The notes below the pieces were generated by a model that had not been told where the DNA came from, ran no database searches, and saw nothing but the letters and a program-made list of their open reading frames with translations. Both the position numbers and the translations under genes were made by a program. A DNA stretch of 64,000 bases, taken from Escherichia coli. Lineage in GTDB: Bacteria; Pseudomonadota; Gammaproteobacteria; Enterobacterales; Enterobacteriaceae. Within the stretch, counting starts at the first letter, position 1. Each line of letters starts with the position of its first letter. Where the stretch lies: the NCBI RefSeq assembly GCF_009931435.1, contig NZ_CP043414.1; one strand, given 5' to 3'. Below, one piece after another: positions 14,719 through 62,586 of the stretch.

Positions 14719-14720
14719 AT

Positions 14721-20617: not shown

Positions 20618-20911
20618 CCCGCAGTCATCTTACCCTTCCTTAGCAAAATAGCTGTTTATTTATACAGTTGGTCTTATTTCGGACTTCTCACTACGCATTA
20701 GATCAACCGAAACTAAGCCAGTTTTTCCTTCGCCCCTCAATCATCAAAATTCTCCGCCGCCAGCCAGCTCTGCCATAACCTGGCACATTGCAAAGTAGCC
20801 AAACTTCTTCAGTCACAATCAGTTCACCATCACCAAAAAAAAACATTCCAGAACTTCCGCATCTCGCCCAGTCGCTCCCACTTCTATACTCAAATGAAAA
20901 CGCCAACATAA

Positions 20912-41271: not shown

Positions 41272-42033
41272 ATGCAATTGAGCAGCAGTGAACCTTGCGT
41301 GGTGATCCTGACCGAAAAAGAGGTAGAGGTAAGCGTCAATAACCATGCCACGTTTACCCTTCCGAAAAATTACCTGGCCGCCTTCGCGTGCAACAATAAC
41401 GTCATTGAACTCTCAACGTTAAATCACGTATTAATCACCCACATCAACCGTAACATCATCAACGATTATCTGTTGTTTTTAAATAAGAACTTAACCTGTG
41501 TAAAGCCCTGGTCGCGGCTGGCTACCCCGGTTATCGCTTGTCATAGCCGTACACCGGAAGTGTTCCGGCTAGCCGCCAACCACAGCAAGCAGCAACCCAG
41601 CAAACCCTGCGAAGCGGAGTTGACGCGCGCATTGCTTTTTACCGTATTGTCTAACTTTCTTGAGCAATCGCGGTTTATTGCCCTACTGATGTATATCTTA
41701 CGCAGCAGCGTCCGCGACAGCGTCTGCCGCATTATTCAAAGCGATATTCAGCATTACTGGAATCTGCGAATTGTCGCCAGTTCGCTCTGTTTAAGCCCCA
41801 GCCTGCTCAAAAAGAAATTAAAAAACGAAAATACCAGCTATAGCCAGATTGTCACAGAGTGTCGTATGCGTTACGCCGTACAGATGTTATTGATGGATAA
41901 CAAAAATATCACTCAGGTGGCACAATTGTGTGGGTATAGCAGCACGTCGTACTTTATCTCTGTTTTTAAGGCGTTTTACGGCCTGACACCGTTGAATTAT
42001 CTCGCCAAACAGCGACAAAAAGTGATGTGGTGA
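41272..42033 (+). CDS. envY: AraC-family transcriptional regulator EnvY
   Basis: 253-aa ORF with C-terminal AraC helix-turn-helix (...VAQLCGYSSTSYFISVFKAFYGLTPLNY); AT-rich. Confidence 0.85.
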   Translation: MQLSSSEPCVVILTEKEVEVSVNNHATFTLPKNYLAAFACNNNVIELSTLNHVLITHINRNIINDYLLFLNKNLTCVKPWSRLATPVIACHSRTPEVFRLAANHSKQQPSKPCEAELTRALLFTVLSNFLEQSRFIALLMYILRSSVRDSVCRIIQSDIQHYWNLRIVASSLCLSPSLLKKKLKNENTSYSQIVTECRMRYAVQMLLMDNKNITQVAQLCGYSSTSYFISVFKAFYGLTPLNYLAKQRQKVMW

Positions 42034-42078
42034 AGGGCAAAGCGGAAACAGATAAGACTGGCATAAATGAAGAAGAAA

Positions 42079-42123
42079 TGGCGCGCCCTGCAGGATTCGA
42101 ACCTGCGGCCCACGACTTAGAAG
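42079..42123 (-). pseudogene. pauD: 3' fragment of tRNA-Arg(UCU) argU (pauD-like), the prophage attachment-site core (attR)
   Basis: Reverse complement CTTCTAAGTCGTGGGCCGCAGGTTCGAATCCTGCAGGGCGCGCCA matches the 3' 45 nt of argU as I recall it (anticodon loop through the acceptor CCA); the 5' half of the tRNA is absent. Confidence 0.8.
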
Positions 42124-42546
42124 TTCCTAGAACGACATTTTAAGTCAACAACTTACCGCGCCATCTCTGCGCTCACACGTCCCACTACCTCAAAACATGT
42201 AAAGCCTTGCAAGCCATTGCGAGGCCTTATGTGTCTCAGTTTTGTCCCTCTTTTTTGTACTAAAAAACATAGTAATTGAGGATAAACCTCATGCTATTTT
42301 CGCTTATATGCCTCTAAAGGCATGGCACTTAAATAGATAAAAGCACCACAAAAGCATAAAAAAACCACACAGTAAAACCGAAATATGAAACAATAACAGA
42401 TAATTAAACCAAAAACAGATAGCGCATTGTGATAATCATTCAATACTAAACAAAATATAAACAGTGGAGCAATATGTAATTGACTCATTAAGTTAGATAT
42501 AAAAAATACATATTCAATCATTAAAACGATTGAATGGAGAACTTTT

Positions 42547-43500
42547 ATGCGGGCGAAACTTCTGGGAATAGTCCTGACAACCCCTATTGCGATCAGCTCT
42601 TTTGCTTCTACCGAGACTTTATCGTTTACTCCTGACAACATAAATGCGGACATTAGTCTTGGAACTCTGAGCGGAAAAACAAAAGAGCGTGTTTATCTAG
42701 CCGAAGAAGGAGGCCGAAAAGTCAGTCAACTCGACTGGAAATTCAATAACGCTGCAATTATTAAAGGTGCAATTAATTGGGATTTGATGCCCCAGATATC
42801 TATCGGGGCTGCTGGCTGGACAACTCTCGGCAGCCGAGGTGGCAATATGGTCGATCAGGACTGGATGGATTCCAGTAACCCCGGAACCTGGACGGATGAA
42901 AGTAGACACCCTGATACACAACTCAATTATGCCAACGAATTTGATCTGAATATCAAAGGCTGGCTCCTCAACGAACCCAATTACCGCCTGGGACTCATGG
43001 CCGGATATCAGGAAAGCCGTTATAGCTTTACAGCCAGAGGTGGTTCCTATATCTACAGTTCTGAGGAGGGATTCAGAGATGATATCGGCTCCTTCCCGAA
43101 TGGAGAAAGAGCAATCGGCTACAAACAACGTTTTAAAATGCCCTACATTGGCTTGACTGGAAGTTATCGTTATGAAGATTTTGAACTCGGTGGCACATTT
43201 AAATACAGCGGCTGGGTGGAATCATCTGATAACGATGAACACTATGACCCGGGAAAAAGAATCACTTATCGCAGTAAGGTCAAAGACCAAAATTACTATT
43301 CTGTTGCAGTCAATGCAGGTTATTACGTCACACCTAACGCAAAAGTTTATGTTGAAGGCGCATGGAATCGGGTTACGAATAAAAAAGGTAATACTTCACT
43401 TTATGATCACAATAATAACACTTCAGACTACAGCAAAAATGGAGCAGGTATAGAAAACTATAACTTCATCACTACTGCTGGTCTTAAGTACACATTTTAA
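42547..43500 (+). CDS. ompT: Outer membrane protease OmpT (omptin)
   Basis: 317-aa ORF MRAKLLGIVLTTPIAISSFASTETLSFTPDNINADISLG... ending ...ITTAGLKYTF. Confidence 0.93.
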   Translation: MRAKLLGIVLTTPIAISSFASTETLSFTPDNINADISLGTLSGKTKERVYLAEEGGRKVSQLDWKFNNAAIIKGAINWDLMPQISIGAAGWTTLGSRGGNMVDQDWMDSSNPGTWTDESRHPDTQLNYANEFDLNIKGWLLNEPNYRLGLMAGYQESRYSFTARGGSYIYSSEEGFRDDIGSFPNGERAIGYKQRFKMPYIGLTGSYRYEDFELGGTFKYSGWVESSDNDEHYDPGKRITYRSKVKDQNYYSVAVNAGYYVTPNAKVYVEGAWNRVTNKKGNTSLYDHNNNTSDYSKNGAGIENYNFITTAGLKYTF

Positions 43501-43749
43501 GAACGCCAACTAAAATTTCCCCGAGGTGAAAATCGCCCCGGGGAATAACTAGCCATTTCAATGTAACAATTAACCCTTAAAATAAACCCAGAAGGTTATT
43601 AACTAAATCACATAGAAAACCATCAATTATAGTATGTATAAAATAGGCGACAGCAACCCAATTACAAATTAATGGTTCCAGAATATCACATCAAAAAAAA
43701 CGCTGTATAATATTATAATTAACATGTAGACAACTTGTAATAAACATTA

Positions 43750-44499
43750 TCAGTCAATTGTTTTGTTTATTCCATCTGTGACGCCGATTATTTTCTCAAA
43801 ATAATGAGATGGCGTGACACCATAATAATCTTTAAATGCACATATGAAATATGAAGTACTGTTATAGCCACATTTCTGGGCTACGACATTGATAGAATAA
43901 GAGTTTGAAGTTATGAGTTTTTTTGCATACCTCATCCTAGTATCTCTCAATATTTCAGTAAATGACGTTCCTTCATCCCTTAATCTTTTTTTTATTAAAC
44001 TTTCACTCGTATAAATCAATTCCGCAATATCTTTTAAATGCCATTGCCGCTCAATATTAAAACTGATTATTCCAGTAATTTTACAGGTAAATGTATTTAT
44101 ATTTGTTAGTATAAATGAATTTACACTTTCGCGTTTTTTGAACATGGCAAGTAAGGATATACATAGTCTTTCTTTTAACCAAAGGGAGTGTGAGTCTGCT
44201 ATTTTAATCCCTTCAAACAGAGAAAAAACAAGCGATAATGGAGGTTCCTCTTCAGCAATATAGCCATTCTTATCAAGAGTAAATTTGCCAGGCAGCTCAT
44301 TATTCACGTCGATAAAAAAGGATAAACATGTTTTCTTATCTATATCAACAATTCTTAGTTTAGAGGGGCATACTGGTAACTCCCTTCTAATTTTGTCGCT
44401 TACAATAAACAATGAATTTTTTTTGAACGAGATAACTCTCCTGTTTATAATTAAATCAAATGATTGACAGATGAAAACTACGGAGCAAACATAATCCAT
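43750..44499 (-). CDS. appY: AraC-family transcriptional regulator AppY
   Basis: 249-aa [36 protein letters not shown]...; very AT-rich, with a long AT-rich upstream region (44500-45100). Confidence 0.88.
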
Positions 44500-45058: not shown

Positions 45059-45200
45059 GCCACTCGATATCTGGTGCTACGGAAGTGTCCACACGGTTTA
45101 GCAGCACCCGATACTTTTTTCAGGCTTCCAGCAACGATCTTTCTTCCTCCGTTGCGATTTCCAGATCTACAGCATCCTGCAGTGGCGCAATATACTCACT
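45059..45200. repeat. Direct repeat copy A of the tfa 3'-end segment (partner at 46119-46260)
   Basis: About 140 bp at roughly 85-90 percent identity to 46119-46260, by manual alignment. Confidence 0.7.
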
Positions 45201-45305
45201 GAATTCCTGGATGTAGAACTGTGTAGTGACGGTCTTCCAGCCATTCGGCTCCTGCTGTATTGAAGCATACCAGGCTATTTCAATATCGCTATGCTGCGGC
45301 AGCAT
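45120..45305 (-). pseudogene. tfaX: Tail fibre assembly protein C-terminal remnant (tfaX-like)
   Basis: 61-aa ORF ending ...[23 protein letters not shown], homologous only to the C-terminal part of the intact Tfa at 46095-46679; lies in a duplicated roughly 140-bp segment. Confidence 0.7.
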
Positions 45306-45443: not shown

Positions 45444-46040
45444 TTGGGAGTATCAAATCGGCTTGCATGGGGATGTCCTACAAAGGAACACCTTCTTCCA
45501 CACCTTCTTCCACACTTTCTGGAACATTTAGGTAACAACCATCTGGATATTGGTGTTGGAACTGGGTTTTACCTTACTCACGTACCTGAGAGTAGTCTGA
45601 TATCTTTAATGGATTTGAACGAAGCTAGCCTGAACGCGGCATCTACAAGGGCTGGGGAATCAAAAATTAAACATAAAATTAGCCATGATGTTTTTGAACC
45701 TTATCCCGCGGCGTTACATGGTCAATTTGATTCCATTTCCATGTCTTACCTTCTTCACTGCCTGCCTGGAAATATATCTACAAAAAGCTGTGTAATACGC
45801 AATGCGGCGCAGGCCTTAACTGACGATGGAACTCTATACGGAGCCACAATTCTTGGCGATGGAGTTGTGCACAATAGCTTCGGTCAAAAACTGATGCGCA
45901 TTTACAATCAGAAAGGCATCTTTTCAAACACAAAAGATTCCGAAGAAGGCTTAACACATATACTCTCAGAGCATTTCGAGAATGTTAAAACCAAGGTTCA
46001 AGGTACTGTAGTAATGTTTTCCGCTTCAGGAAAAAAATAG
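45444..46040 (+). CDS. ybcY: Putative class I SAM-dependent methyltransferase (YbcY-like), possibly N-terminally truncated or a pseudogene
   Basis: 198-aa ORF with glycine-rich motif I (LDIGVGTGFY); the only in-frame start is a TTG, with no upstream ATG or GTG before the stop at 45375. Confidence 0.55.
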   Translation: MGVSNRLAWGCPTKEHLLPHLLPHFLEHLGNNHLDIGVGTGFYLTHVPESSLISLMDLNEASLNAASTRAGESKIKHKISHDVFEPYPAALHGQFDSISMSYLLHCLPGNISTKSCVIRNAAQALTDDGTLYGATILGDGVVHNSFGQKLMRIYNQKGIFSNTKDSEEGLTHILSEHFENVKTKVQGTVVMFSASGKK

Positions 46041-46094: not shown

Positions 46095-46679
46095 TTACTC
46101 CCTGACAGGGTTCGTAGGCCACTCAATATCAGGTGCAGTTGATGTATCAACACGGTTCAGCAACACCCGATATTTTTTCCAGGCTTCCAGCAATGAGGTT
46201 TCTTCCTCCGTTGCGATTTCCAGATCTACAGCATCCTGAAGTGGCGCAATATGCTCACTGGCTACCTGCATCAGGCTGTTTTTTGTTTCTTCCGCCTCCC
46301 GAATCCGGAACAGTTTTTCTGCTTCTGCATCTTTCACCCAGGCTGTACCGTTCCACTTCTGAAACTCCCCTTCCGGCGATAACCAGGTAACATTTTCCGG
46401 TAACGGACCGAGTTCAGAAATAAATAACGCGTCCCCTGACGCTACGTCATAAACCGTTTTACCCCGATGATCTTCAACGAGATGCCACGATGACTCATCA
46501 CTGTTGAAAACAGCCACGAAGCCAGCTGGAATATCTGGCGGTGCAATGTCGGTACTGTTTGCTGGCAGACCTGTATGAGGCGGAATATATGCGTCACCTT
46601 CACCAATAAATTCATTAGTTCCGGCCAGCAGATTATAAATTGTTATGGTCCGTGGTTGTTCACTCATTCTGAATGCCAT
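46095..46679 (-). CDS. tfa: Tail fibre assembly protein Tfa
   Basis: 194-aa [56 protein letters not shown]...; start overlaps the stf stop. Confidence 0.9.
46119..46260. repeat. Direct repeat copy B of the tfa 3'-end segment (inside the intact tfa)
   Basis: Partner of 45059-45200. Confidence 0.7.
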
Positions 46680-49600
46680 TATGCAAGCCTCACAATATAG
46701 TTAAATGCGATGTTTTTGACGGTGTTTTCCGCGTTACCAGCAGCGTTAACGGTGATGGTGTGTCCATGTGAGCCAATCGCAACCGAGTGCGTATGAGCAC
46801 CAATACCGACAGTATGTGCGTGTGCACCTGCGCTTGCTGCAGTGCCGGACAGTGAGTGGGTATGAGCACCATCTGATGATGTCTTCCCTGCATTACGAGT
46901 CTGGCCACTACCGCTTGTTGTGCTCATAATCCCCGCGCTTGGATTTGAAATCGCGGTATAACCATTAGGGAAAATGCTCGTGTTCGTGCCACCAAATGCA
47001 CCGGAACTCTTGTGTTGGTGCGCACCGGCACTATTTGCGGTCCCGCTAATACTATGGGTATGCGCCCCGGTGTTATTCGTGGATTTGGTTCCGTAATCAA
47101 ACGACGATGTGGTTTTCGTCCCCAAATCCGTACTGGATGCGCTGGCGCTGTGGGTATGCGATTTAATGCCGTCCTGTTCCTGAGACAATACGGCCCGACC
47201 ACTGGCAGGTTTGCCCTTAATCGTCCAGCCACGCATATCAGGGATCACGCCTGACGGATAAGCCGCTGCAAGTTTCGGGTAGGCAGATTTGTCAAAAGCC
47301 TGCCCCTGCATCAGGGCATAGCCAGACGGAACGGTATCTGATGGCCACGGGATTGGTGCGCCGACTGGGTAGCTTTCTGGTGGAAGATTTTTCGAGGTAT
47401 AAACTTCTGCCCAGTCTTCCTCAAAACCATAGCCATCTCTTGAGGAACGGTAGAACAGACCTCCATTTCTGTAATGCGCCTTCATCTGCAGGGTCCGGCA
47501 ACTTCCGACTCCGGTATAGAAGTTAACCAGAATATAGCTGTCGCCAGAGCGGGTGACATTGTAAGCGCCTGATTCGGCATTCCAGGGAACGCCACCATCC
47601 GCATCGGCATATGTATCCGTTGCCCTTCTGGCAAAAGCAGCCACATGCGCGGCGGTTAAAGTAATATCTTTGGAACCATCAAACTCAACACCAGAAACCA
47701 GTCTTGGCGTTTGCAGCTTTGTTGCTGTTAATGCATTACCGTTCAGACTTGCGGACAGTTTGGTTCCAATAATCAGTTCGCCGGTTGCGTTATCAATAGC
47801 AAACGGTCTTAATGTATTCCAGCCACCATAAACATCACCTTGATTGGTAAGCAGCAGGTAAGTTTTAGCGCCATCATTACGCCATAATGCACCATACTCC
47901 CCACCTATCATTCGAATCTGATTACCACCACGCGCTACAATTTCGTCTGTGGCAAAAAGTTTTTTGCACGACAAGTTATCGTTAACGATTAACGAATGAG
48001 ACTCATAAAAACCACGCCCACTCTTAAAATCAAGGATAACGTCCGCCGCGATACATTCAGTCGCCGGATTTGTTGCCCCAAACTTATAGGTCGTATCATT
48101 AACAACGAGATCAGCACCAGGTGCGGATATTGACAGGCCATCTTCGATAAACGCAAAAACAGGGAAAGCAGCGCCATCAACATAGAACACAGAGCGCAAA
48201 TCATCGCCCTTATTACTCATCATTATTGAGTGGATGGCTCGTTCATTGTTTTGATATTGCCAGAACATTCCATAAGCATAACGCCCCCTGTCAGTCCAGC
48301 CACCAGGCATAACAAATCCGTTAAACTCGCAGTTATTCATCGGATCGCCTGCGGTTCGCGTTGCCGTGGTGATAATGACCCTTGATGCCAGTTCGCTTAC
48401 TGAGCCAGCAGAACGCATAACAACAACAGGGTAATATTTTCCAGATGTTGCACCTGCAGGAGCGTTAACCCGCACATAACGCATACCACGCTTATCAGCA
48501 AAGTCTGTTTTACTGACCGCGTTAATGTTGTTCAGGAAGCGTCCCTTATCGGGTATATCAGCGCCGTTCTGGTCTTTCTGCAGACGTTTCTCTGCATTGT
48601 CATAGGCTGATTTTACTGCCTTTGGCGTTGCCGCCAGCGTTTCAGACGTACTGTTGGTCGCACTGCTGAGCTGTACTACCCCCTTTTTCGTCGTGCTCGC
48701 ATCCTCAAGCGCCACGGCGGATGCAATATCCTCTGCCCGTTTTGCCGCTGTCTCGGCGCGCGTTGCCGCGGATTCCGCCGTACTTTTGCTCTGAGCTGCC
48801 GCCGTCGCACTGCCAGCTGCCTCTGTCGCCTTCGTGGATGCCGTCGTGGCGCTGCTCTTCGCTGCTGACGCTTGTCTGGTCGCCTCATCTTTTGAAGCAG
48901 ACGCAGATGATGCCGATGACGCCGCCGAACTGGCTGACGATGCGGCAGCCGTTTTTGAGGATTCTGCGCTGGTTTCCGACGCTTTCGCGTTCGTTTCGGA
49001 TGTCTTCGCTGCGGAAGCAGAACTCGCTGCTGCGCTGGCCTGTTCAGTGGCTTCGCCAGCCTTCGTTGTGGCTGTTGAAGCAGACGATGCGGCACTTTCT
49101 GCCGACTTTCCGGCAGCGGTGGCACTGGCTGAGGCCTGCCCGGCACTTGTTGACGCGGCGCTGGCAGATGATGCAGCCGCTGTTTTTGAGTCTGCTGCTG
49201 CGGAGGCACTCTGTTCCGCTGCCGTCTCAGAAGACTTAGCGTTCGTCTCGGACGTTTTTGCCGCCTTCGCGGAATTTCCTGCCGCCGTTGCCGAGGAAGC
49301 TGCGCTACTGGCGCTCGAGGATGCGTTCGTTTCTGATGATTTCGCTGCCTCTTTTGAGGCCGCCGCATCCCTGGCTGAGGTGGCAGCTTCTGACGCTTTC
49401 CTGGTCGCGGTGGATGCAGAAGTGGCTGCTGATTGTTGTGACGCTGCGGCATTCGTTTCTGACGTTTTCGCCGCACCGGCACTGGTGGCCGCCGCGCTTT
49501 TTGAGGACTCTGCAGCGGCAGCACTTTTTTCCGCTTCAGTGGCCTTTGCTGATGCCGTTCCTGCGCTGGAAGATGCTGACTGAGCCGACGACGCGGCCTG

Positions 49601-50086
49601 TCCGGCTGACGTGCTGGCTGCGCGTGCTGAGCCTGCAGCATCAGTCGCATGGGTTGCCGCCTCACTGGCAGATGTGCTGGCATCGCCGGCTGACTTCTTC
49701 GCGGCTGCCGTGTTTTGTGCCACCGCGGACGCGTTACGCGCCACCTCTTCCACCATCAGTTCAAAACGGCGCAGAGCCTCCGGACGGGCATCATCCTCCG
49801 TCATGGCACCGAGAAAATCATTCAGCGTACCGGGTCGGGAATCTTCATACACGGTGATGGTCCCGGCATGTGACGGCGGGAATCCTTCCACCAACAGAAT
49901 AACGCTGTACTGACCGTACTCAACGTCCATGCTGTAACGCCCGGCTTCATCCGGATTTTCTGAGGCCAGCGTGTTCACCACCACCGCGGTGCTGTTACGT
50001 TTTGCTTTCAGCTGGATTGTGCAGTTCTGTACCGGTTTTCCTGTGCCGTCTTTCAGTACACCTGAAATCTTTACTGCCATATTCAC
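46679..50086 (-). CDS. stf: Side tail fibre protein Stf (lambda Stf / StfR-like)
   Basis: 1135-aa [40 protein letters not shown]...; long Ala/Ser/Thr-rich repetitive shaft; C-terminal His-rich GAHTHS-type motifs and ...[13 protein letters not shown]. Confidence 0.9.
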
Positions 50087-50144: not shown

Positions 50145-50744
50145 TCAGAACTTATAACCGACACCCACGATGAAACCGTCAGTGCGCCAGTCGCCACTGC
50201 CGGAGCCTTCATAAGCAATATCAATGGCCACGGATTCGGTCGGGTTAAACTACACGCCAGCTCCCCACGCCAGAGACGTGTTGCTGTGGCGACCGTCATC
50301 ACTTCCGGTCAGCACGTCGTGCGTTTTCCCCTTGTTGTCAGTTACGCGGAGATAATCCCCGGAGAAAGTCGACACACGGCTGTAAGCCATACCCGCCATC
50401 GCATACGCGCTGAACCATTCATTCACGCGCACAGACGGCCCCACCATCACGCTGAACCAGCGGTTACGCACGGAATCTTCATGCCAGCGGGTATTGCTGT
50501 AACGGGTAAGCTGGCGATTCTTGTCTCCTGCATAGCTGAATGACGTCACCAGCCCCAGTGTGTCCGTAAACTCATAACGGTATTTCACGTTAATCCCGTT
50601 AAGATCATCGCTGCCGGGAACGTTCGTCGAGGCATGAAGATACCCCGCGCTCAGCGTGGACTGATGTTCAGATGCCCATGCAGGCGCACCGGATACGGTC
50701 AGACAAATGGCTGCGGACAAAATGGCGGCATAAAGTTTACGCAT
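50145..50744 (-). pseudogene. lom: Lom-like outer membrane protein gene interrupted by an in-frame amber codon
   Basis: 164-aa ORF MRKLYAAILSAAICLTVSGAPAWASEHQSTLSAGY... stops at TAG (50252-50250); the same frame continues FNPTESVAIDIAYEGSGSGDWRTDGFIVGVGYKF to a TGA at 50147-50145, with Q expected at the TAG position. Confidence 0.75.
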
Positions 50745-50813: not shown

Positions 50814-53800
50814 TCAACGAATACTGATGCCGGAAGCGGCTTTTTTGGTCACAATCACCGTACAGTCGGTGATATTACCTGCCCACTGATTGCCTTTATG
50901 GAAAACCTTAAACTCCAGAGTGACGCTTCCCCTGCCACTCGGCATATCAATAACCGCACTGTAGCTACCGGGAATGGCCCCTTTAGTTTCTCTGGATGCG
51001 ATTAATACACCGTTTTTGCGAACTTCAAAACCATAACCCGTGTATCTTGTACCTCCCGGGTTATTACCACTTCCCGGATCGCTATACGCTATTCCGTTAA
51101 AGATAATGGGCGGAATAATGATTTGACGGTCAAAGTTATGATCATCGCTGATGGTGACTGTAACCGTCCCGTTTGGTGTTTCCGTGTTACCCCACGTACC
51201 AGCCTGTTTCGGAAATGATTTGGATACAGCTTTAACGAAGTCACCTCTGACCTGAGTCGCCTCCAGCATGCCCTTAATTGTACAGTTTTCATTTACCGTG
51301 ACATTGTTGAGCGTCCCGGCGTTCGCATTCACACTGCCACTGATATCCGCATTTTTAGCGGTCAGCTTTCCGTCTGATGTCAGGGAAAATACCGGTGGAT
51401 TTCCACCGCTGGTAATGGTGGGGGCCGTCAGGCGCTTCAGGAACACGTCGTTCATGAATATCTGGTTGCCCTGCGCCACAAACATCGGCGTTTCATTCCC
51501 GTTTGCCGGGTCAATAAACGCGATACGATTGGCGGCAACCAGAAACTGGCTCAGCTTGCCTTCCTCCGTGTCCTCCATGCTGAGGCCAATACCCGCGACA
51601 TAATGTTTGCCGTCTTTGGTCTGCTCAATTTTGACGCCCCACATCGCATTCCATTTATCGTTAGCGTCCTTCCACTCTTTCGAAAACTCATCCAGTCTGC
51701 TGGCGTTATCCTCCGTCAGATCAACTTTTTCCAGCAGCTCTTTACCGAGATGGGATTCGGTTATCTTGCCTTTGAAAAAATCCAGGTAACCTTCCGCATC
51801 ATCGCTCGCCCGACCAACAGCCTCCACGAATGCCGATTTGCCAACGGTGTTCACACTGCGAACGTAAAAATAATAATCATGGCCCGGTTTGATATTGATA
51901 CTGGCGGCTATCCAGTACAGTGCCGTACCAAGATAACGCGCGCTGGTTTCAACCTGCCTGATATCCGCAATCCGTTTTTCCGAGAACCAGAACTCAAACT
52001 GTACCGTCGGGTCATAAACCGCAAGATGCGGCGTGGCGGTTATCTGAAAATAGCCCGGCGTCAGCTCAATCCGCGACGGCGCTGCCGGTGCGGCAATCCG
52101 GAACGATACCGACGCCGGATCGCCCTGCTGTCCCCACGCATTTACCGCCCGGACTGTCAGCGTGTACCGTCCCAGCGCCAGTTGCGTGAAGCGGTATGTG
52201 GTTTCCGTCGTCCGGGCCGTGCTGACCAGCCGCTCACTGCCGTCATCCGCTGTTACGGTCAGACGGAGCAGGAAGCTCACGCCCTTCACCACCTTCGGCG
52301 TGTCCCAGCGCGCCAGCACCTGATATTCCCCGCTGTCTGCGGTGACTTCGGCAGTCAGGTGCTGCACCGCTGGCGGCGTGACACCATTCACCGTGCCGCT
52401 CTGGTCGCCGTCAAAGTGCGCCCCGTTATCCACGATGGCTTCTTTTTCCGGTACATGCTGCACGGCGGTGATGGCATACGTGCCGTCGTCGTTCTCACGG
52501 ATACTCACGCAGCGGAACAGGCGCTGGCGCAGCGTCGGCAGCTTCAGCCCCCACACGCTGTATTCAGCAACGCCGTCAGGAACACGGCTCACTTTCACCT
52601 TCACGCCGTCGGTGACGGACTGAACCTCCACGCTGACCGGATTGCCACTTCCGTCAACCAGGCTTATCAGCGTGGTACCGGAGGATGGCAGCGTGATTTC
52701 ACGGTCGAGCGTCAGCGTCCGGGTCTGGCTGTTTACCGCCAGCACGCGCCCGCCGGTGCTGATACCGGCATAGTCATCATCACAGATTTCAATGACATCG
52801 CCCGGCACATGGCGAAGCCCTTCTGCGCCCACGCTGAAGTCCACGGTCTGCGTTTCCAGCAGTTCTGTTTTAATCAGCCATAGCCCGGCGCGATGTGCCT
52901 GCCCCCGGCTGGTACAGCCAAAGGCATCCATCTTCGTGACGTTACGACCGTAACGGGCAATGGCCTGCGTGTCCTCCACAAGCTCTGTCGCCGTCTCCCA
53001 GCCGTTATTCGGGTCAATCCAGTTCACCTCAACGGCATTATGGCGGTCCTTCAGGGCGCTGAAGCTGTAGCGGAACGGCGCGCCATCATCCGGCATCACC
53101 ACATTACTGCGGTTATAGGTCCACACCTTATCCGATGGTCGGTCCTGCACGAACGTCAGCGTCTGCCCGTTCCATACCGGCATACAGCGCATCGCCGAGC
53201 AGAAATCACTGAGCACATCCCACGCCTTGCGCTGTGTGGTCAGGTACGCATTACAGGTGATGCGCGGCTCCGTGCCGCCAAAGCCGTCCGGCACTGACTG
53301 GTCGCAGTACTGGCCGATGACATACAGCGCCCATTTATCCACATCCGCCGCACCAAGACGTTTCCCCATGCCGTAGCGCGGATGGGTCAGCATATCCCAC
53401 AGACACCAGGCCATGTTGTTGCTGTATGCCGGTTTAAACGTTCCGTCCCAGATACCGCTGTATTGCCGCGTCTGCGGGTTATAGTTCGACGGCACCTGCA
53501 GAATGCGCCCGCGCAGATGATAATTACGGCTCACCTGCTGGCTGCCGAACTGCTCCGAATCCACCTGCACGCCGACCAGTGCCGTGTTCGGGTAGCCCTG
53601 TTTCACATCGATGATTTCGGTGTATGACGACCAGAGCGTTTTGTTCTGCAGCTGGTCTGTGGTGCTGTCCGGCGTCATCCTGCGCATCCGGATATTGAAC
53701 GGGCGCGGCGGCAGGTTACCCACCACCACCGAGGCCAGATACTGCGAGGTGGTTTTGCCCTTAATGGTGATGTCTTTTTCCGTCACCCAGCCACCATTAC

Positions 53801-54227
53801 GCTGGATCTGAACCAGCAGGCGGACTTCCGACGGATTCCTGTCCCCCTTTGAGGTGGTTTCCACCAGTGCCTGCACGCCGAAGGTAAAACGCAGTCGGTC
53901 AATGTTTGCCGACGTGATGGTCCGGGTGATCGGCGTGTCGTATTTCACTTCCGTACCCAGCACCGTCTCGGAGCCGGAGGATTCAAATCCCTCCGGCGGT
54001 GTCTGCTCCTGCTCACCGGCCCGGAACACCACCGTGACGCCGGAGATATTGGTATTCCCCTCACTGTCCAGCACTGGCGTACTGTTCAGCAGCACGCTTT
54101 TTAATCCATCCACCGGACCTTCAACCGGCCCTTCGCTGATGGCATCGATCACACTCAGCAACTGCGTGGACTTCAGGTTGTCCTTCGCTTCGCGCGGAGT
54201 ATGCCCCTTACTGCTGCCTTTACCCAT
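50814..54227 (-). CDS. J: Tail tip / host specificity protein J
   Basis: 1137-aa [57 protein letters not shown]..., lambda J-like over most of its length with a diverged C-terminus. Confidence 0.93.
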
Positions 54228-54286: not shown

Positions 54287-54958
54287 TCAGCGACCAATCA
54301 CCACAACCTGACCACCATCCCCTTCGTCTGCCGTGCTGATCTCCTGAGAGACCACCCGCGACCCCACGCGCATTTCACCGTACAGAACCGGCAGAACATT
54401 GCCCTGGGCAACCATGTTATCCAGTGAGGAGAAATAGGTGTTCTGTTTGCCGTTATCCGTTGTCTGTGTACGGGGAGTTCTGGCTTTCGGTGCCAGCATC
54501 TGCGCCACACCACCGAGCACCATACTGGCACCGAGAGAAAACAGGATGCCGGTCATACCACCGGCCCCAATGGCTGCCCCCCATGCTGCAAGGGTGGCCC
54601 CGGCGGTAAAGAATGATCCGGCAATGGCGGCAGCCCCCAGGACAATCTGGAATACGCCACCTGACTTGGCCCCGGCGACTCTGGGAACAATATGAATCAC
54701 AGCGCCATCAGGTAGAGTCTCATGTAACTGCGCCGTTAATCCGGACGTGCTGACATCCTGCCCGGCAATCCGTACCTGATACCAGCCGTCGCTCAGTTTC
54801 TGACGAAACGCCGGGAGCTGTGTGGCCAGCGCCCGAATGGCTTCAGCCCCCGTTTTCACACGAAGGTCGATGCGGCGGCCAAATCGTTGCAAATCCCCGT
54901 AAAGGCAGATGCGCGCCATGCCCGGTGACGCCAGAGGGAGTGTGTGCGTCGCTGCCAT
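54287..54958 (-). CDS. I: Tail tip assembly protein I
   Basis: 223-aa ORF MAATHTLPLASPGMARICLYGDLQRFGRRIDLRV... (lambda gpI-like). Confidence 0.9.
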   Translation of the reverse strand: MAATHTLPLASPGMARICLYGDLQRFGRRIDLRVKTGAEAIRALATQLPAFRQKLSDGWYQVRIAGQDVSTSGLTAQLHETLPDGAVIHIVPRVAGAKSGGVFQIVLGAAAIAGSFFTAGATLAAWGAAIGAGGMTGILFSLGASMVLGGVAQMLAPKARTPRTQTTDNGKQNTYFSSLDNMVAQGNVLPVLYGEMRVGSRVVSQEISTADEGDGGQVVVIGR

Positions 54959-55599
54959 TTGTCGGTATACCTCTCTCGTTTGCTCAGTTGTTCAGGAATA
55001 TGGTGCAGCAGCTCGCCATCACCACAGTAAATGGCGGCATGATTCGGCACCGATGAACCAAAACAGCACAGCAGCACATCGCCCGGTTGTGCTGATGACA
55101 ACGGCACCTGATACAGCCCTGTGGCCTCCAGATTATCCAGATAGAGATTCTGACCGTGACGCCACCAGTCATCCTCGCGATGAAAATCCGGCATCTCAAT
55201 CCCCGCCAGATGATAAGCATCCCGGAATAGCGTGTAACAGTCCGTCACCCCGTGTTCAAAGCGCCGCCCGGTGAGATGCGGCACACAGCGGAACTTATGA
55301 ATCGTCCCCCGGCAGACCAGCCACCACGGCAAATCACTCTGCACCTGCAGCCGCCGGTCAGCCTCACTCAGCCAGGGCAGACCACCGGGGTGGCTGTGGA
55401 CCAGCGCCACAATCTCACCCTGCATCTCTGCCCGCAGCCAGTCCTCCGGCGACATCCGGAAATACTCCTCCGGCTCACCGGAGATATTCACGCAGGGAAA
55501 ATATCTTTCCCCTTCCGGCGTTCTCACCACGAAGCCGCACGACTCCGCTGGCGCACATCGCCGGGCGTGCGCCAGAATCGCTGATTCTGTCTCTGTCAT
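54856..55599 (-). CDS. K: Tail tip assembly protein K (JAMM/MPN plus NlpC/P60 domains); 3' boundary relative to lambda K uncertain
   Basis: 247-aa ORF MTETESAILAHARRCAPAESCGFVV... with HSHP motif; starts 5 nt after the L stop and overlaps I by 103 nt. Confidence 0.8.
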   Translation of the reverse strand: MTETESAILAHARRCAPAESCGFVVRTPEGERYFPCVNISGEPEEYFRMSPEDWLRAEMQGEIVALVHSHPGGLPWLSEADRRLQVQSDLPWWLVCRGTIHKFRCVPHLTGRRFEHGVTDCYTLFRDAYHLAGIEMPDFHREDDWWRHGQNLYLDNLEATGLYQVPLSSAQPGDVLLCCFGSSVPNHAAIYCGDGELLHHIPEQLSKRERYTDKWQRRTHSLWRHRAWRASAFTGICNDLAAASTFV

Positions 55600-55604
55600 G
55601 GGAT

Positions 55605-56303
55605 TTACTGCGAAAGTTTGTTAATGGAAAGGAAGCCGCCAAAGTTGCCGACATTATTGCGGAACTTACAGCCACTCAGGCATTTGCTGCATTTATCCTT
55701 CGTGATATCGGACGTCGGCTGATCATATTCATCCGCGACAGCCGGACCTTGATAACCGCACTCATCACCGCGATAGGTCCAGGTGCAGGTATTAGCCAGC
55801 ATGATGCGCCCCGGAAAAACGGCACCATCCGTTTCCGTCGGTGTGGACAACACAAAGGAGGCACTGACCGCACTCAGTTCGCTGCACTGCTCGATGCGCC
55901 AGCGGCTGATCACCTCCTGCTCCGGATCGGCGTCGCTGTTTCCGTTGACGAAGTTCACCGCATCCAGAAAACGGGCGTAAACCTTACGCCTGACCACCGT
56001 TCCGCCGACCAGACTCTGCAGGTCTTCCGCCATCCCCGTGACCATGCCGTGCAGGTTAGAAACCGTCAGTATCGGACGGGCAGCACTGCCCTTGCCGTTC
56101 AGTTCAAATCCCGTCCCCTGAATGGGGTATGCCTGATACTGCCGCCCCTGCCAGGTAACCGGCTCACCTTTTTCGTTTTGCTCATTACAGAAAAAATAAC
56201 GTTCTCCACCGACCTCTGTCAGGTCGATTTCCCAGAGCACCACGCTGGCCGACTGCTCCGCACGGGTGCATTCATTCAGTGTTTCCTGCCGGATATCCTG
56301 CAT
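55605..56303 (-). CDS. L: Tail tip assembly protein L
   Basis: 232-aa ORF MQDIRQETLNECTRAEQSASVVLWEIDLTEVGGERYFFCNEQ... Confidence 0.9.
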   Translation of the reverse strand: MQDIRQETLNECTRAEQSASVVLWEIDLTEVGGERYFFCNEQNEKGEPVTWQGRQYQAYPIQGTGFELNGKGSAARPILTVSNLHGMVTGMAEDLQSLVGGTVVRRKVYARFLDAVNFVNGNSDADPEQEVISRWRIEQCSELSAVSASFVLSTPTETDGAVFPGRIMLANTCTWTYRGDECGYQGPAVADEYDQPTSDITKDKCSKCLSGCKFRNNVGNFGGFLSINKLSQ

Positions 56304-56632
56304 CAGTTCACCACCTGTTCAAACTCTGCGCTGAACTCAACACGCAGCATACTGACCCGCGACGACCATTTTGCGCAGGTCACCTTTATCTGCCGCCACT
56401 CATAAGGCGGCGTCCACAGAAAGGATTTCCAGCCCCCGTGCTCTTCCAGAAACGACTCCAGTACCGTGGCCTCCTCACGGGGGACAGAAAGCGTCACGCT
56501 GTACGTTTTCAGGTTGGCATTCAGCCCGGCAGGCGCTCGCTGGGAATAGCCATCACCAAAGCGCACCTTTCTTACAGAAGGGACCGAAGCCACATCCATA
56601 CCGGGTTTCACTTTCCAGCGGAAGGTCTTCAT
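56303..56632 (-). CDS. M: Tail tip assembly protein M
   Basis: 109-aa ORF MKTFRWKVKPGMDVASVPSVRKVRFGDGYSQRAPAG... Confidence 0.9.
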   Translation of the reverse strand: MKTFRWKVKPGMDVASVPSVRKVRFGDGYSQRAPAGLNANLKTYSVTLSVPREEATVLESFLEEHGGWKSFLWTPPYEWRQIKVTCAKWSSRVSMLRVEFSAEFEQVVN

Positions 56633-59208
56633 CGTCCACCTCCGGAGAACAGGCCACCATCACGCATCTGTGTCTGAATTTCATCACGGGCACCCTTGCG
56701 GGCCATGTCATACACTGCTTTCATCATCTGTGGACCTGGCAGACCATTCGTACCGTCGTTCTGAATCACCACGTTGTTGTTCTGCTCAAACCTGATACCC
56801 TCTGAACGCCGCATTTGCGCCGGACTTCCGGTGCCACCGACATAACCGCCGGTGGCATAGCCGCGCATCAGCCGGTAGAGATTTCCCACGCCAATCCGGC
56901 TGGTTGCCTCCTTCGTGAAGACAAATTCACCACGGTGAACAATCCCCGCTGGCTCATATTTGCCGCCGGTTCCCGTAAATCCTCCGGTTGCAAAATGGAA
57001 TTTCGCCGCAGCGGCCTGAATGGCTGTGCCGCCTGACGCGGATGCGCCGCCACCAACAGCCCCGCCAATGGCGCTGCCGATACTCCCGACAATCCCCACC
57101 ATTGCCTGCTTAAGCAGAATTTCTGTCATCATGGACAGCACGGAGCGGGTGAAGCTGCGCCAGTTCTGCTCACTGCCGGTCAGCATCGCCGCCATATTCT
57201 GTGCAATACCATCAAAGGTCTGCGTGGCTGCACTTTTTACCTGCGACATACTGTCCGTGGCGCTCTCTTCCCACTCACTCCAGCCGGACTTCAGGCCTGC
57301 CATCCAGCTCCCGCGAAGCTGGTCTTCAGCCGCCCAGGTCTTTTTCTGCTCTGACATGACGTTATTCAGCGCCAGCGGATTATCGCCATACTGTTCCTTC
57401 AGGCGCTGTTCCGTGGCTTCCCGTTCTGCCTGCCGGTCAGTCAGCCCCCGGCTTTTCGCATCAATGGCGGCCCGTTTTGCCCGTTGCTGCTGTGCGAATT
57501 TATCCGCCTGCTGCGCCAGCGCGTTCAGGCGCTCCTGATACGTAACCTTGTCGCCAAGTGCAGCCAGCTGGCGTTTGTACTCCATCGTCTCATCTTTATG
57601 CGCCAGCAGGGATTTCTCCTGTGCGGACAGCTGGCGACGTTGTGCCGCCTCCTCCAGTACCGCGAACTGACTTTCTGCCTTCCACAAATCCCGGCGCTGC
57701 TGGCTGATTTTCTCATTTGCTCCGGCATGCTTCTCCAGCGTCCGGAGTTCAGCCTGAAGCGTCAGCAGGGCAGCATGAGCACTGTCTTCCTGACGATCGC
57801 CCGCAGACACCTTCACGCCGGACTGTTTCGGCTTTTTCAGCGTCGCTTCATAATCCTTTTTCGCCGCCGCCATCAGCGTGTTGTAATCCGCCTGCAGGAT
57901 TTTCCCGTCTTTCAGTGCCTTATTCAGTTCTTCCTGACGGGCGGTATATTTCTCCAGCGGCGTCTGCAGGCGTTCGTAAGCCTTCTGCGCCTCTTCGGTA
58001 TATTTCAGCCGTGATGCCTCAGACTCGACCCAGTCCTTTGCTGCCATCTCTCTGGCCTTTTCAAGATCGGCCTGCAACGTGGCGGCTGAAAGCCCAAGTT
58101 GCGCATTCGCTCTGTCCTCCCATGCTCCCCGGAGATTGGCAAGAAATGCTGAGGTTTTACCGCGCCGGTGGCTCCGGCTCTGATACCACTGCCATTTTTT
58201 GTCCGCCTCATCAAAAGCCTTTTCTGCTTTCTCCAGCATTCCCTGGGCAGTGTCCGGGCGACCAATATCCAGCACCGAATCCCACATGGATTTGAATGCC
58301 CGTGCTGTCCTGTCTGCCCAGGTCTCCAGCGTGCCCATGTTCTCTTTCAGGCGGCGGGTCTGGTCATCAAACCCTTTCGTTGCGGCCTCGTTCGCCGCCT
58401 GCAATGCCCCGGCTTCATCGCCGGAACGCTGCAACTGAGCAACATACGCAATCTGCTCCGCCGTCACGTTATGGAACTGGCGTGCCATCGCCGTCAGCCC
58501 CGACGTCGGGTCTGTGGTCAGCTTCCCGAAGGCTTCAGCGACCTTGTCCACCTCCACGCCGGATGCAGAGGAGAAACGCGCCACACTCTGGCTGATGGAC
58601 GCAATCTGAGCCTCACCGCTTACCCCCGCCTTAACCAGTGCGCTGAGTGACTCGCTGGTCTGGTTAAACGTCAGCCCTGCCGCCTGCCCGGCTCTGGACA
58701 GGACCAGCATGCGATCTGCCGTCAGACCCGACTGATTGCCGGAAAGGACCAGCGTTTTGTTGAAATCGGACAGGGTTGAGTTGCCCTGATACCAGGCATA
58801 CGCCAGCGCACCGGTCGCCACCGCCAGCGAGGTGGCCCCGACCATCGGCAGGGTGATCGCACCGGCAAGCCCCCTGAACATGGGGATCATCCCGCCGAAG
58901 GAGTCCTTAACCTGACCACCCTGTTGCAGCAGGATCAGCCACGGACTTTGCCCGCCTGCAAACTGCGTGGCCACGTCGGTGAACTGTGCAGGCAGCATAC
59001 GCATGGCGGCTTTATACTGCCCGACGGAAATCCCCGCTTTCTGTGCAGCCAGCGCCTGTCGGCTCAGCGACTGTTCAACGACTGCCGCTGTTTTTTTCGC
59101 ATCAGTTTCCGTACCGGAAAAATGACGCCTGACTCTGGCCATCTGCTCGTCAAATCTGGCCGCATCCAGACTTAAATCAACGACCAGATCGCCTACCGGT
59201 TCAGCCAT
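56629..59208 (-). CDS. H: Tail tape measure protein H
   Basis: 859-aa ORF MAEPVGDLVVDLSLDAARFDEQMARVRRHFSGTETDAKK... Confidence 0.93.
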   Translation of the reverse strand: MAEPVGDLVVDLSLDAARFDEQMARVRRHFSGTETDAKKTAAVVEQSLSRQALAAQKAGISVGQYKAAMRMLPAQFTDVATQFAGGQSPWLILLQQGGQVKDSFGGMIPMFRGLAGAITLPMVGATSLAVATGALAYAWYQGNSTLSDFNKTLVLSGNQSGLTADRMLVLSRAGQAAGLTFNQTSESLSALVKAGVSGEAQIASISQSVARFSSASGVEVDKVAEAFGKLTTDPTSGLTAMARQFHNVTAEQIAYVAQLQRSGDEAGALQAANEAATKGFDDQTRRLKENMGTLETWADRTARAFKSMWDSVLDIGRPDTAQGMLEKAEKAFDEADKKWQWYQSRSHRRGKTSAFLANLRGAWEDRANAQLGLSAATLQADLEKAREMAAKDWVESEASRLKYTEEAQKAYERLQTPLEKYTARQEELNKALKDGKILQADYNTLMAAAKKDYEATLKKPKQSGVKVSAGDRQEDSAHAALLTLQAELRTLEKHAGANEKISQQRRDLWKAESQFAVLEEAAQRRQLSAQEKSLLAHKDETMEYKRQLAALGDKVTYQERLNALAQQADKFAQQQRAKRAAIDAKSRGLTDRQAEREATEQRLKEQYGDNPLALNNVMSEQKKTWAAEDQLRGSWMAGLKSGWSEWEESATDSMSQVKSAATQTFDGIAQNMAAMLTGSEQNWRSFTRSVLSMMTEILLKQAMVGIVGSIGSAIGGAVGGGASASGGTAIQAAAAKFHFATGGFTGTGGKYEPAGIVHRGEFVFTKEATSRIGVGNLYRLMRGYATGGYVGGTGSPAQMRRSEGIRFEQNNNVVIQNDGTNGLPGPQMMKAVYDMARKGARDEIQTQMRDGGLFSGGGR

Positions 59209-59641
59209 ACCGGACTCCTCCTGCGATCCCTTCTGATACTGTCATCAGCATTACGTCATCCTCCGTCATGTCCGCCACATCCGGGGAAGCGGGGATAACT
59301 TCATTCCCGTCCGGGCCAAAGCGGACACCTCCGGCAAGCCCTGCCGCTTTCTGCATCAGCACATCATCTTCAGGCTCTTCGTCAGCCTCGCGCCGGTTAA
59401 GCAGACTGAAATCCAGCGGATGCATATCCGGATCGCTGAAAAACAGGCTGAGCACGGTGTACGTCAGCCCGGAAAAGTGCATATCCAGCAGAACATCATG
59501 AAAATAATGGGTACTGTAAAAGCGGTGCCAGTCGGCATACTCCGTGGATGACATCCCGGCAAGCATGGCACGCCAGTCGGGTCGCCCCATCTCACGCGCC
59601 AGTTTCAGGGCAAAACTCAGCTCACCGTCGAACACTTTCCC
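59201..59641 (-). CDS. T: Tail assembly chaperone T segment, expressed as a G-T fusion by -1 programmed ribosomal frameshift
   Basis: ORF in the -1 frame relative to G, beginning at the slippery site; no independent ribosome-binding site or ATG is expected. Confidence 0.8.
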   Translation of the reverse strand, partial: GKVFDGELSFALKLAREMGRPDWRAMLAGMSSTEYADWHRFYSTHYFHDVLLDMHFSGLTYTVLSLFFSDPDMHPLDFSLLNRREADEEPEDDVLMQKAAGLAGGVRFGPDGNEVIPASPDVADMTEDDVMLMTVSEGIAGGVRYG

Positions 59642-60039
59642 GCAGAAACAGGCTCTGCAGGCCCGGCGTCCTCTGTCTGTTCAGGGGTATTATTCACAAC
59701 AAACTCATACATTCCGGACAGCCGGTACACCACGTTTTCAGCATGAGAAATTGCCTCTGTGGGCCAGGTGGTAAGCACTTCCTGTTCAATCTGTTTAACG
59801 GCTTCATTCATGGACGGCATCTGCGTCTTCTTCGGATGGTTATGCCACAGGGACATCGCCACCACACAAGCACCGGTTCTGATGACGTCTTCCACAGTAA
59901 CCTGCCGGTTGCTGTCTGACTCCGCCTGTTCTGCCTGCCGTTTCATCAGGGCGAGATGCTCAATACGCTGCAGGGCTGACAGTTCAGAAAGCGTGACGGT
60001 CACGCCGTTATGTTCAAATGATTCGGTTTTCAGGAACAT
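59617..60039 (-). CDS. G: Tail assembly chaperone G
   Basis: 140-aa ORF MFLKTESFEHNGVTVTLSELSALQRIEHLALMKRQAEQ... ending ...SAGKCSTVS. Confidence 0.9.
   Translation of the reverse strand: MFLKTESFEHNGVTVTLSELSALQRIEHLALMKRQAEQAESDSNRQVTVEDVIRTGACVVAMSLWHNHPKKTQMPSMNEAVKQIEQEVLTTWPTEAISHAENVVYRLSGMYEFVVNNTPEQTEDAGPAEPVSAGKCSTVS
59635..59641 (-). other. Slippery heptamer G GGA AAG for the G/GT -1 frameshift
   Basis: Minus-strand reading GCG GGA AAG in the G frame, with the T frame reading GGG AAA GTG; identical in form to the canonical lambda G-T slip site. Confidence 0.8.
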
Positions 60040-60054
60040 CGCTGACTCTCCGGA

Positions 60055-60795
60055 TTAACTGGCGGTGACGGTGATTTCTGCAACCGCAGCAAACTCACCA
60101 TTACCGGATACGACCGGAATGTTGACCTTACCTGCAGCAACGCCATTCACGGTGATGGTCATACCACTGACCGACACGGTGGCTTTTGTTTTATCCGCTG
60201 ACACCGCACGGAAGCTCTTGTCGGTTGCGCCTTCCGGCTGGAATGCCACGGTCAGCGTGGTGCTCTGCCCTTTCACCACCGAGGTGCTGGCAGGCGTCAC
60301 AGTCATGCCGGTTGTCGCCGTCACCGTGCTGCGATCTTCTGCCATCGACGGACGGCCCACATTGGTGACCTTCACCGTGCGGGTGATCACTTCCTTCGCC
60401 GTCACCGCCTTACCGATACTGCTGACCCAGCCGCGGAACACATCGACCGTGCCGTTCGGGAAGCGGATTTTATAGGCTCGGGTATCCCCTTCATTAAACC
60501 ACGCCAGCAGCGCCTGCTGCCCCTGCTCTCCGGGCATCCACGCCAGCGTGAAGCTGGTATCTCCGGCAGATTTCTGCCCCTGTCCGGTCGCGGTCCAGTC
60601 CGCATCTTCATCATCGAGATAACTGTCGTCATAGGACTCAGCGGTCAGTTCGCCGGGCGTCAGGTCTTTAACTTTAGCCAGACGCGACCAGTCAACGTCT
60701 GAAAGCGGGTTCGCATAAGGGTCACCGTTCCCCTTATAAACCCACAGTGTGGTCCCGGCCCCTTTCACCGGTGCCAGAGGATTTGGTGTTGGCAT
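60055..60795 (-). CDS. V: Major tail tube protein V
   Basis: 246-aa product from the ATG at 60795 ([34 protein letters not shown]...); C-terminal Ig-like region. Confidence 0.92.
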
Positions 60796-60802
60796 ATCGT
60801 CC

Positions 60803-61198
60803 TCACATTTCATAGGTAATGACATAAGTCAGATCGGCTGAACTCCACAGGCCCGCATCATCGTCGCGCCGGTAGTCATAGCCACTGGCCACCATACTGG
60901 TGATCAAATCTGACAGTGCCGGGATATCGCTCATCACCGGATAAATCCGGGACTCCATCCACGAATCCAGCTCTGAATCCGGCACCTGAGCAGGCAGGAA
61001 AACTTCAATATGCAGCTCCGCCTGCCAGGTATCGCTGTCCAGCTCTTCGCCCGTGTATTCAGCGCCGGTGAGATAAACGGCAACTGCCGGAAAATCCGCC
61101 TCATCAAAAACAGCGGGGCGACCATCAAAAAACGTCGCCCCGGTGTCATGCTTCTCCAGTGCATCCAGTACGGCTGCACGGAGTTCAGTATGTTTCAT
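60803..61198 (-). CDS. U: Tail terminator protein U
   Basis: 131-aa [39 protein letters not shown]... Confidence 0.9.
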
Positions 61199-61773
61199 CG
61201 CTTTATTACCATCCTCAGTTGATGCTGCAGCGCATAGCCCAGCTCTTTCGGAAGACGCTCACGCCGTATCCGCTCAATATTCTGTTTAAACGCCGTGGTC
61301 AGCGGCACCGCCATCGGAATTTTCACCACATCAATGGGGTAACGATTTTTCCCGGCCACACGCTGCATAACATGCCAGCGGCCATTTTTCAGTTGCTGAA
61401 TAAACGCGCCGGGAATACGACGGTTTCCCACCACAAGCACGCTGCCGCCACCTTTCAGGGCTGAACGCTGCCCCTTTTTACGACGCCTGCGTCGGGACAG
61501 GACAATCCGCGCGTTACCCAGCTTTATTACGGGCAAATCCCCCCGGTTAACCTTGATTCTGGCCTGCGGATTTTTGACCGTGGCCCTTTTCAGCCTGGCC
61601 CTTTCCTTTACCAGTTTCCGGCGTACCTTTGTCTCACGGGCAACCTGTGACGCCGACTGCGATATCGCGGATGAAGCAACGCGGTTAATGGCCATTGCGG
61701 CGGCACCGGGCACCGCCGTTCTGCTGATACGGCTGAGGTTTTCAACGGCCTGCTCAAGACCTTTTATGGCCAT
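61195..61773 (-). CDS. Z: Tail completion protein Z
   Basis: 192-aa ORF MAIKGLEQAVENLSRISRTAVPGAAAMAINRVASS... Confidence 0.9.
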   Translation of the reverse strand: MAIKGLEQAVENLSRISRTAVPGAAAMAINRVASSAISQSASQVARETKVRRKLVKERARLKRATVKNPQARIKVNRGDLPVIKLGNARIVLSRRRRRKKGQRSALKGGGSVLVVGNRRIPGAFIQQLKNGRWHVMQRVAGKNRYPIDVVKIPMAVPLTTAFKQNIERIRRERLPKELGYALQHQLRMVIKR

Positions 61774-61784
61774 ACATCCCCCTT

Positions 61785-62138
61785 TCAGCGGCGACGGTTA
61801 ACGGCAGGCGGTACGCCCCGCCCAAGCCAGAGATGACAGCTTCCGCCATCATCCGGCGAAATCCGGTCTATCCAGAAGTTTTCCTCACCGATGGTCAGCG
61901 TGTCGCCGCGCCGCAGCTGCCGCACATCATCAGTCCGGACAAACAGGAACGGGCTGGAGCCTTCAACGCGCACGCCCTGTCCGGCATAGCTGATATTTTC
62001 AGGATCATCAAAAACACCACGTATCACAGCACCGGACTGCTCACCGGATGTCATGGTGGCTGACGTTCCCATGTACCCGCGTATCGTTTCATCGGCGCGG
62101 GCAATGGCAGCATCGAACAGGTTATCGAAATCAGCCAC
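61785..62138 (-). CDS. FII: Head-tail joining protein FII
   Basis: 117-aa ORF MADFDNLFDAAIARADETIRGYMGTSATMTSGEQ... Confidence 0.9.
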   Translation of the reverse strand: MADFDNLFDAAIARADETIRGYMGTSATMTSGEQSGAVIRGVFDDPENISYAGQGVRVEGSSPFLFVRTDDVRQLRRGDTLTIGEENFWIDRISPDDGGSCHLWLGRGVPPAVNRRR

Positions 62139-62149
62139 AGCGCCTCCCG

Positions 62150-62545: not shown

Positions 62546-62586
62546 GGACTCCTCCACAGAGAGAAAATGGCCCCGAAGGGCCATGA

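Follow-up and report, generated by a model that had tools for sequence, protein, structure and literature searches.

The attR of a prophage at the tRNA gene argU is already known in Escherichia coli, both as an annotated boundary of prophage DLP12 in strain K-12 and from a paper of 2019 (PMC6379469), which describes the other end of DLP12 as bearing a 47-bp region resembling the 3' end of argU. In the MG1655 annotation, the 'cryptic prophage DLP12' (564755..586056) begins within argU, at the first base of a 45-nt core, and its last base immediately precedes a second copy of this core at 586057-586101. Further, appY has been termed a DLP12 prophage gene (PMC11228462), the phage epsilon34 combines an argU attP with a DLP12-like integrase (PMC2629481), and pauD is listed among the K-12 pseudo-tRNAs in an E. 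coli tRNA sequencing study.

Besides these integrated elements, the phages Kati, PhiR68_2, 2G7b and ev243 are represented by unintegrated genomes with an intact attP, in which int is followed by an attP with a 47-bp core and P arm, and then by ompT. The Salmonella phages SEN22 and BIS08P22 share the int-att cassette with a core that differs from that of E. coli at two positions, but the Salmonella argU phages have podovirus-type virion genes, and their att-adjacent cargo consists of O-antigen modification genes or a tailspike rather than ompT and appY. Lambda itself resembles these phages of E. coli in that non-essential cargo lies between stf/tfa and attP and that int lies beyond attP; however, it integrates between gal and bio through a 15-bp core without a tRNA gene. 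On the lambda map, the b region is the interval from the side tail fibre genes to attP, and its genes are unrelated to ompT and appY.

The window, that is, the whole stretch of 64,000 nt of E. coli DNA analyzed here, carries a fragment of argU at 42079-42123, where the plus-strand letters read TGGCGCGCCCTGCAGGATTCGAACCTGCGGCCCACGACTTAGAAG. Their reverse complement, CTTCTAAGTCGTGGGCCGCAGGTTCGAATCCTGCAGGGCGCGCCA, is identical to the 45 nt at the 3' end of the 77-nt argU gene as annotated in K-12 MG1655 (positions 1756-1800 of the extracted MG1655 locus, inside the tRNA gene at 1724-1800). The fragment thus covers the part of tRNA-Arg(UCU) that begins with the first anticodon-loop base and ends with the terminal CCA, and the absence of a 5' half, claimed in the earlier note together with the exact 45-nt match, is in line with the finding that no tRNA was called at this place. 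It was unique in the window even when three mismatches were permitted, and none of 100 dinucleotide-preserving shuffles matched the 45 nt at the argU 3' end. Identity to the copy in an intact argU extends 2 nt (TT) beyond the CCA, so that the att core repeat measures 47 bp and occupies 42077-42123 on the minus strand. We take this orphan argU 3' end to be the pseudo-tRNA pauD of K-12. As the ORFs and the annotation of relatives bear out, the fragment lies on the minus strand between envY (41272-42033, plus strand) and ompT (42547-43500, plus strand), and envY is identified as the bacterial flanking gene by its ORF, the annotation of relatives and the adjacency of argU and envY in strain 300709.

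The four types of att site were aligned in argU orientation, with strain 300709 representing attB, Kati representing attP, K-12 and FACU 2024 representing attL, and the window and K-12 representing attR. All four types contained an invariant 47-bp core made up of the 45 nt of argU and TT. Upstream of the core, the 5' half of argU was found in attB and attL, and one common phage arm was found in attP and attR; downstream of it, bacterial sequence leading toward envY was found in attB and attR, and phage sequence leading toward int was found in attP and attL. The arms were therefore swapped exactly as in the Campbell model, showing that the fragment in the window is the displaced original 3' end of argU. 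These results, together with the genomes with an empty site described below, agree with the proposal of the earlier note that an element had integrated into a tRNA gene and that the fragment marks one of its ends. The designation of this end as attR also holds, as it is the end on the J side, far from int, and the label follows the lambda convention. We conclude, with a probability of about 97%, that 42077-42123 is the attR of a lambda-like prophage of the DLP12 family that integrated site-specifically into the 3' part of argU. The family assignment is based on an argU site bounded by envY, on att-proximal ompT and appY and on lambda-like late genes, all of which were found in the window.

Genomes without the prophage fixed the position of the junction. 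When the element was excised in silico, so that argU was joined to the envY-side flank, the product was matched in 2532 of the 5426 complete E. coli genomes at a coverage of at least 80%, and the 20 matches listed were all 100% identical in one piece. In strain 300709, which has such an empty site, the gene order is fimZ, argU, envY, and ompT is absent between argU and envY. A 301-bp query covering the junction (41950-42250) had a full-length match in 1617 genomes, which share this attR. In the empty-site genomes, the match to this query ended at query position 174, which corresponds to window position 42123, with 'tRNA-Arg' annotated beneath it, indicating that the boundary of the prophage lies at 42123/42124. 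The core (42077-42123, minus strand) is thus delimited by an exact match, by its invariance in attB, attP, attL and attR, and by the limits of the alignments with the empty-site genomes and Kati.

On the bacterial side of the core, 42034-42076 (minus strand) is the B' arm, native bacterial DNA from downstream of argU that differs by three substitutions from the sequence following argU in the empty-site genome. This arm (TTTCTTCTTCATTTATGCC...CTTAT) retains a residual similarity to the phage sequence that follows the attP core (TTACAATTCAATCAGTTACGCC...TTTAT); the phage att region could go back to the host argU region, captured in the distant past, or the similarity could be due to chance. On the other side of the core, the att sites of SEN22 and BIS08P22 were conserved over about 75 contiguous nt and in patches up to about 130 nt. 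Based on the extent of this conservation among attP sites, the functional P arm, which is phage-derived, was placed at approximately 42124-42255 (minus strand), its outer limit being approximate. By analogy with lambda, binding sites for Int (arm-type), IHF or Xis presumably lie in the conserved P arm. In SEN22 and BIS08P22, attP has the same core with two substitutions, present in both Salmonella phages, and an attP combining the inner arms was also found in 2G7b, SEN22 and BIS08P22.

The integrase of Kati is 99% identical to IntD of K-12, and that of SEN22, a P22-like phage of Salmonella, is 85% identical. Both the Kati and the K-12 DLP12 integrases carry the Pfam Phage_integrase domain, which identifies the Kati enzyme as a tyrosine recombinase. 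Integration would start from a phage attP bearing a 47-bp copy of the argU 3' end, with an IntD-type tyrosine integrase exchanging strands between attP and argU. Judging from other integrases that target tRNA genes, this exchange would take place at the left edge of the core, in the anticodon loop or beside it. argU would then be completed by the phage-borne copy at the int end (attL), and the original bacterial 3' end would be moved about 45-48 kb away, where it would stay as the orphan at 42077-42123, followed by native DNA and envY. In the opposite direction, the element would run from 42124 through the P arm, ompT, appY, a tail-fibre assembly remnant and a methyltransferase gene to tfa, stf, lom, J and the tail and head genes.

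The gene content of the window agrees with this order. The genome of phage Kati (PP925833.1, 46,065 bp) carries the integrase at 4757-5920 and the attP core from 5934, and beyond attP it contains ompT, appY, a methyltransferase gene, tfa, stf, lom, J, and tail and head genes. It is collinear with the window from exactly 42077 to 64000, with an identity of 94-99%; an additional 1.76-kb segment of Kati holding a DNA invertase is absent from the window. The PHROGs families assigned to the ORFs of the window included tail-fibre assembly, tail fibre, Lom, J and minor tail proteins. Collinearity with Kati, these assignments and the late-gene annotation of FACU 2024 together indicate that the sequence from 42124 to the end of the window is phage-borne, as the earlier note had claimed.

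The first gene of the element, ompT, encodes an omptin outer-membrane protease and was identified from relatives and from phrog_19858 (E = 8.5e-192); it adjoins attP in Kati, PhiR68_2, 2G7b and ev243. It is followed by appY (43750-44499, minus strand), which encodes an AraC-family regulator and was recognized from its annotation, its GC profile and its counterparts in PhiR68_2 and in Kati, where it is called 'transcriptional regulator'. A tfaX-like tail-fibre assembly remnant (45120-45305, minus strand; phrog_2341, E = 4e-42) occupies the same relative position as tfaX in K-12. Next come a gene for a ybcY-like class I SAM-dependent methyltransferase (45444-46040, plus strand; phrog_2132, E = 1.7e-134), which is annotated as such in FACU 2024 and in phage 2G7b, and tfa, encoding a tail-fibre assembly protein (46095-46679, minus strand; phrog_105, E = 3e-101). 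A match to the Rfam family IS009 (46138-46336, minus strand, 227.8 bits) lies wholly within tfa, suggesting that this 'sRNA' family was modelled on prophage coding sequence.

The side tail fibre gene stf (46679-50080, minus strand), with hits to phrog_295 and other families, encodes a protein of 1133 aa, and exactly this protein was found in 23 draft-genome contigs in the same context; the look-up used the ATG start, and the ORF extends to an upstream GTG. The gene for the Ail/Lom outer-membrane protein, lom (50145-50744, minus strand), was identified from its translation, phrog_108 and the 199-aa versions in relatives. In the window it is interrupted by an in-frame premature stop after codon 164 of 199, whereas it is full-length in relatives and Kati. 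Given this stop, the prophage may be defective, which leaves the identity of the junction unaffected. J, encoding the central tail fibre and host-specificity protein, is located at 50814-54227 (minus strand; phrog_31, E = 0), and the remainder of the window (54287-64000, minus strand) holds lambda-like I, K, L, M, H, T, G, V, U, Z, FII, FI, E and D, assigned from the ORFs and the annotations of FACU 2024 and Kati, with 97% identity to Kati. The capsid protein E was very widespread, occurring in 4665 blocks of the searched collection.

The attR of K-12 DLP12 is the same in its site between envY and ompT, its 45-nt argU fragment, its 47-bp core and its ompT and appY cargo. Over about 880 aligned bp, seven substitutions separate the two; all of them are located in the bacterial flank, and the phage flank is identical. 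In contrast, DLP12 is a 21.3-kb remnant without tail and head genes, whereas the window keeps tfa through D, with lom interrupted. The MG1655 annotation and the published descriptions show that the junction is not new, and the element in the window is a less decayed member of the family than that of K-12.

The other end of the element was located in FACU 2024, a complete relative with 98.8% identity around the junction. In this genome, argU (1977850-1977926) and intD (1977942-1979105) are separated from the fragment by 47.7 kb that contain a full lambdoid gene set, and their equivalent position is about 26 kb past the end of the window. By analogy with FACU 2024 and from the length of the Kati genome, argU and intD of the source genome (attL) would be expected about 22-26 kb beyond the window end, a distance that falls within the 50 kb allowed in the earlier note.

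The closest sequences overall were drafts, with identities of 99.97% (in a contig that ends inside J) and 99.83%, and complete E. coli genomes reached at most about 98.8% identity over the att region and 97.4% over 25 kb. The chromosomal backbone at 1-41000 of the window, which includes entF, fepA, entD, the cus operon, nfrBA, ybcH and envY, had an identity of no more than about 98.2% to the complete RefSeq genomes of E. coli, indicating that this lineage is represented by drafts only (closest GCA_009898965.1 and GCA_037230235.1). Between entD and ybdK in this backbone, three tandem hokE-like hok/sok copies of about 500 bp each, 89-95% identical to one another, were observed at 19206-20690, with three Rfam sok matches and a Hok-like ORF in each copy.

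In the free phage genomes, ompT is located between the tail-fibre genes and attP, and Kati and PhiR68_2 have appY there too. The proposal of the earlier note that ompT and appY take the place of the lambda b region is thus matched by the slot that these genes occupy in free phages. In 2G7b (genus Nesevirus), ev243 and several PhiR phages, int, attP and ompT are followed by an alpha/beta hydrolase gene that replaces appY. The neighbor of ompT therefore varies and may be appY, the alpha/beta hydrolase gene or a methyltransferase gene. A search of the literature on ompT as a lambdoid 'moron' returned nothing directly relevant.

Could ompT and appY instead be chromosomal genes trapped between separate elements, with the true phage end between appY and tfa? 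ompT with its att-side flank (window 42124-43503, query positions 1-1380) was found in about 3700 of the 5426 genomes with 95-98% identity, far more often than ompT together with appY, which occurred in only 824 genomes. The break was directly after the ompT stop codon, so the ompT module persists independently of its neighbors, and appY is compositionally distinct, the gene and its flank having about 30% GC (25-33%), as is typical of acquired cargo. However, such a mosaic pattern also fits exchangeable cargo modules within a phage, the att core is located between ompT and envY, and argU is joined straight to envY in the empty-site genomes. Since free phages carry ompT, and in two cases also appY, between tail-fibre genes and attP, we rejected the idea of trapped chromosomal genes on the basis of these phages and the empty sites, and consider it extremely unlikely. 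A less remote alternative is that 42077-42123 is a true attR, but of a truncated and immobile remnant that has lost its left part in the source genome and carries neither int nor attL within 50 kb. Decay is frequent among argU prophages: DLP12 of K-12, with its 21.3 kb, has many pseudogenes, and Nissle 1917 keeps just a remnant of about 3 kb (locus 8760-12405), consisting of argU, an int fragment, a tfa fragment, the methyltransferase gene, ompT and a mutated argU fragment, at which envY is missing. Moreover, lom is interrupted in the window, and the far end of the element lies outside it. On the other hand, the late genes in the window show collinearity with a free phage over their entire 22 kb, close relatives with the same stf have the same layout, the complete FACU 2024 genome has the full gene set with intD and argU, and even the decayed remnant in Nissle 1917 retains argU and an int fragment. 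We therefore regard a truncated remnant as unlikely and favor an attR whose partner end is still in place. Across these genomes, ompT is a persistent att-proximal module in an otherwise exchangeable or decaying prophage.

The remaining question was whether the locus gives rise to a functional tRNA-like RNA or whether the fragment is inert. Two annotation pipelines name a tRNA at the fragment, as 'tRNA-Pro' in phage Kati and as 'tRNA-OTHER' in strain STEC306, and the E. coli tRNA sequencing study names pauD as one of the pseudo-tRNA genes with assigned reads, although argU itself could be the source of these reads. ARAGORN predicted no tRNA in the whole window, and neither did Rfam at the gathering threshold, so that a scan for an intact tRNA, proposed in the earlier note as a check, came out as that note had expected. 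A permissive Rfam scan gave a sub-threshold tRNA match at 42090-42173 (minus strand), with 24.8 bits against a gathering score of 29. This match covers only model positions 9-63, contains a 29-nt insertion and lacks an acceptor stem; it is composed of the true T-arm together with chance D-arm-like and anticodon-arm-like hairpins in the phage P arm, and it accounts for the labels in Kati and STEC306. A complete cloverleaf with an acceptor stem, scoring above the detection thresholds, is thus absent at the fragment. The fold of the tRNA-like region was no more stable than those of shuffled sequences (z = -0.37), and in the Salmonella copies, base changes in the look-alike stem break pairs without compensation, which makes an annotation artefact the probable explanation of the tRNA-like match. 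On the ARAGORN result, the Rfam score, the fold stability and the uncompensated changes, we therefore rejected a functional tRNA or tRNA-like gene and give it next to no chance. It is speculative, and with the structural evidence against it very unlikely, that the fragment and the tRNA-like phage arm are transcribed in the source genome into a tRNA-derived RNA with an effect, for example on ompT. The displaced 3' end of argU at a prophage attR is thus the reading that we retain.

The orphan fragment need not be inert as DNA. In STEC306 (NZ_CP091016.1, approximately 6040-18428), a 12.4-kb P4-like satellite interrupts the orphan argU fragment that lies between envY and ompT. The satellite, with hok and genes for two tyrosine integrases, a toprim protein, a P2-family capsid protein, an Icd-like protein and an ogr/Delta-like protein, is flanked by the short repeat TCCTGCAGGGG. 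In the ompT-side copy of the fragment, which PGAP labels tRNA-OTHER, the 3' end is replaced (CTGCAGGG|GACACCA). The presence of the satellite indicates that the pseudo-tRNA at attR can still serve as an attachment site for another element, and the orphan argU fragment can thus be a docking site for other integrative elements, as shown in STEC306 only.

The importance of the junction for the window is limited to annotation: the core sets the prophage boundary at 42123/42124. With the boundary fixed in this way, ompT and appY belong to the mobile element, and argU and intD are predicted about 22-26 kb past the end of the window. The biology is that of the textbook, namely phage integration into a tRNA gene, the boundaries of DLP12, and ompT and appY as prophage genes. 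The free phages with int, attP, ompT and appY confirm that these well-known 'E. coli' genes still move with temperate phages whose genomes are apparently complete.
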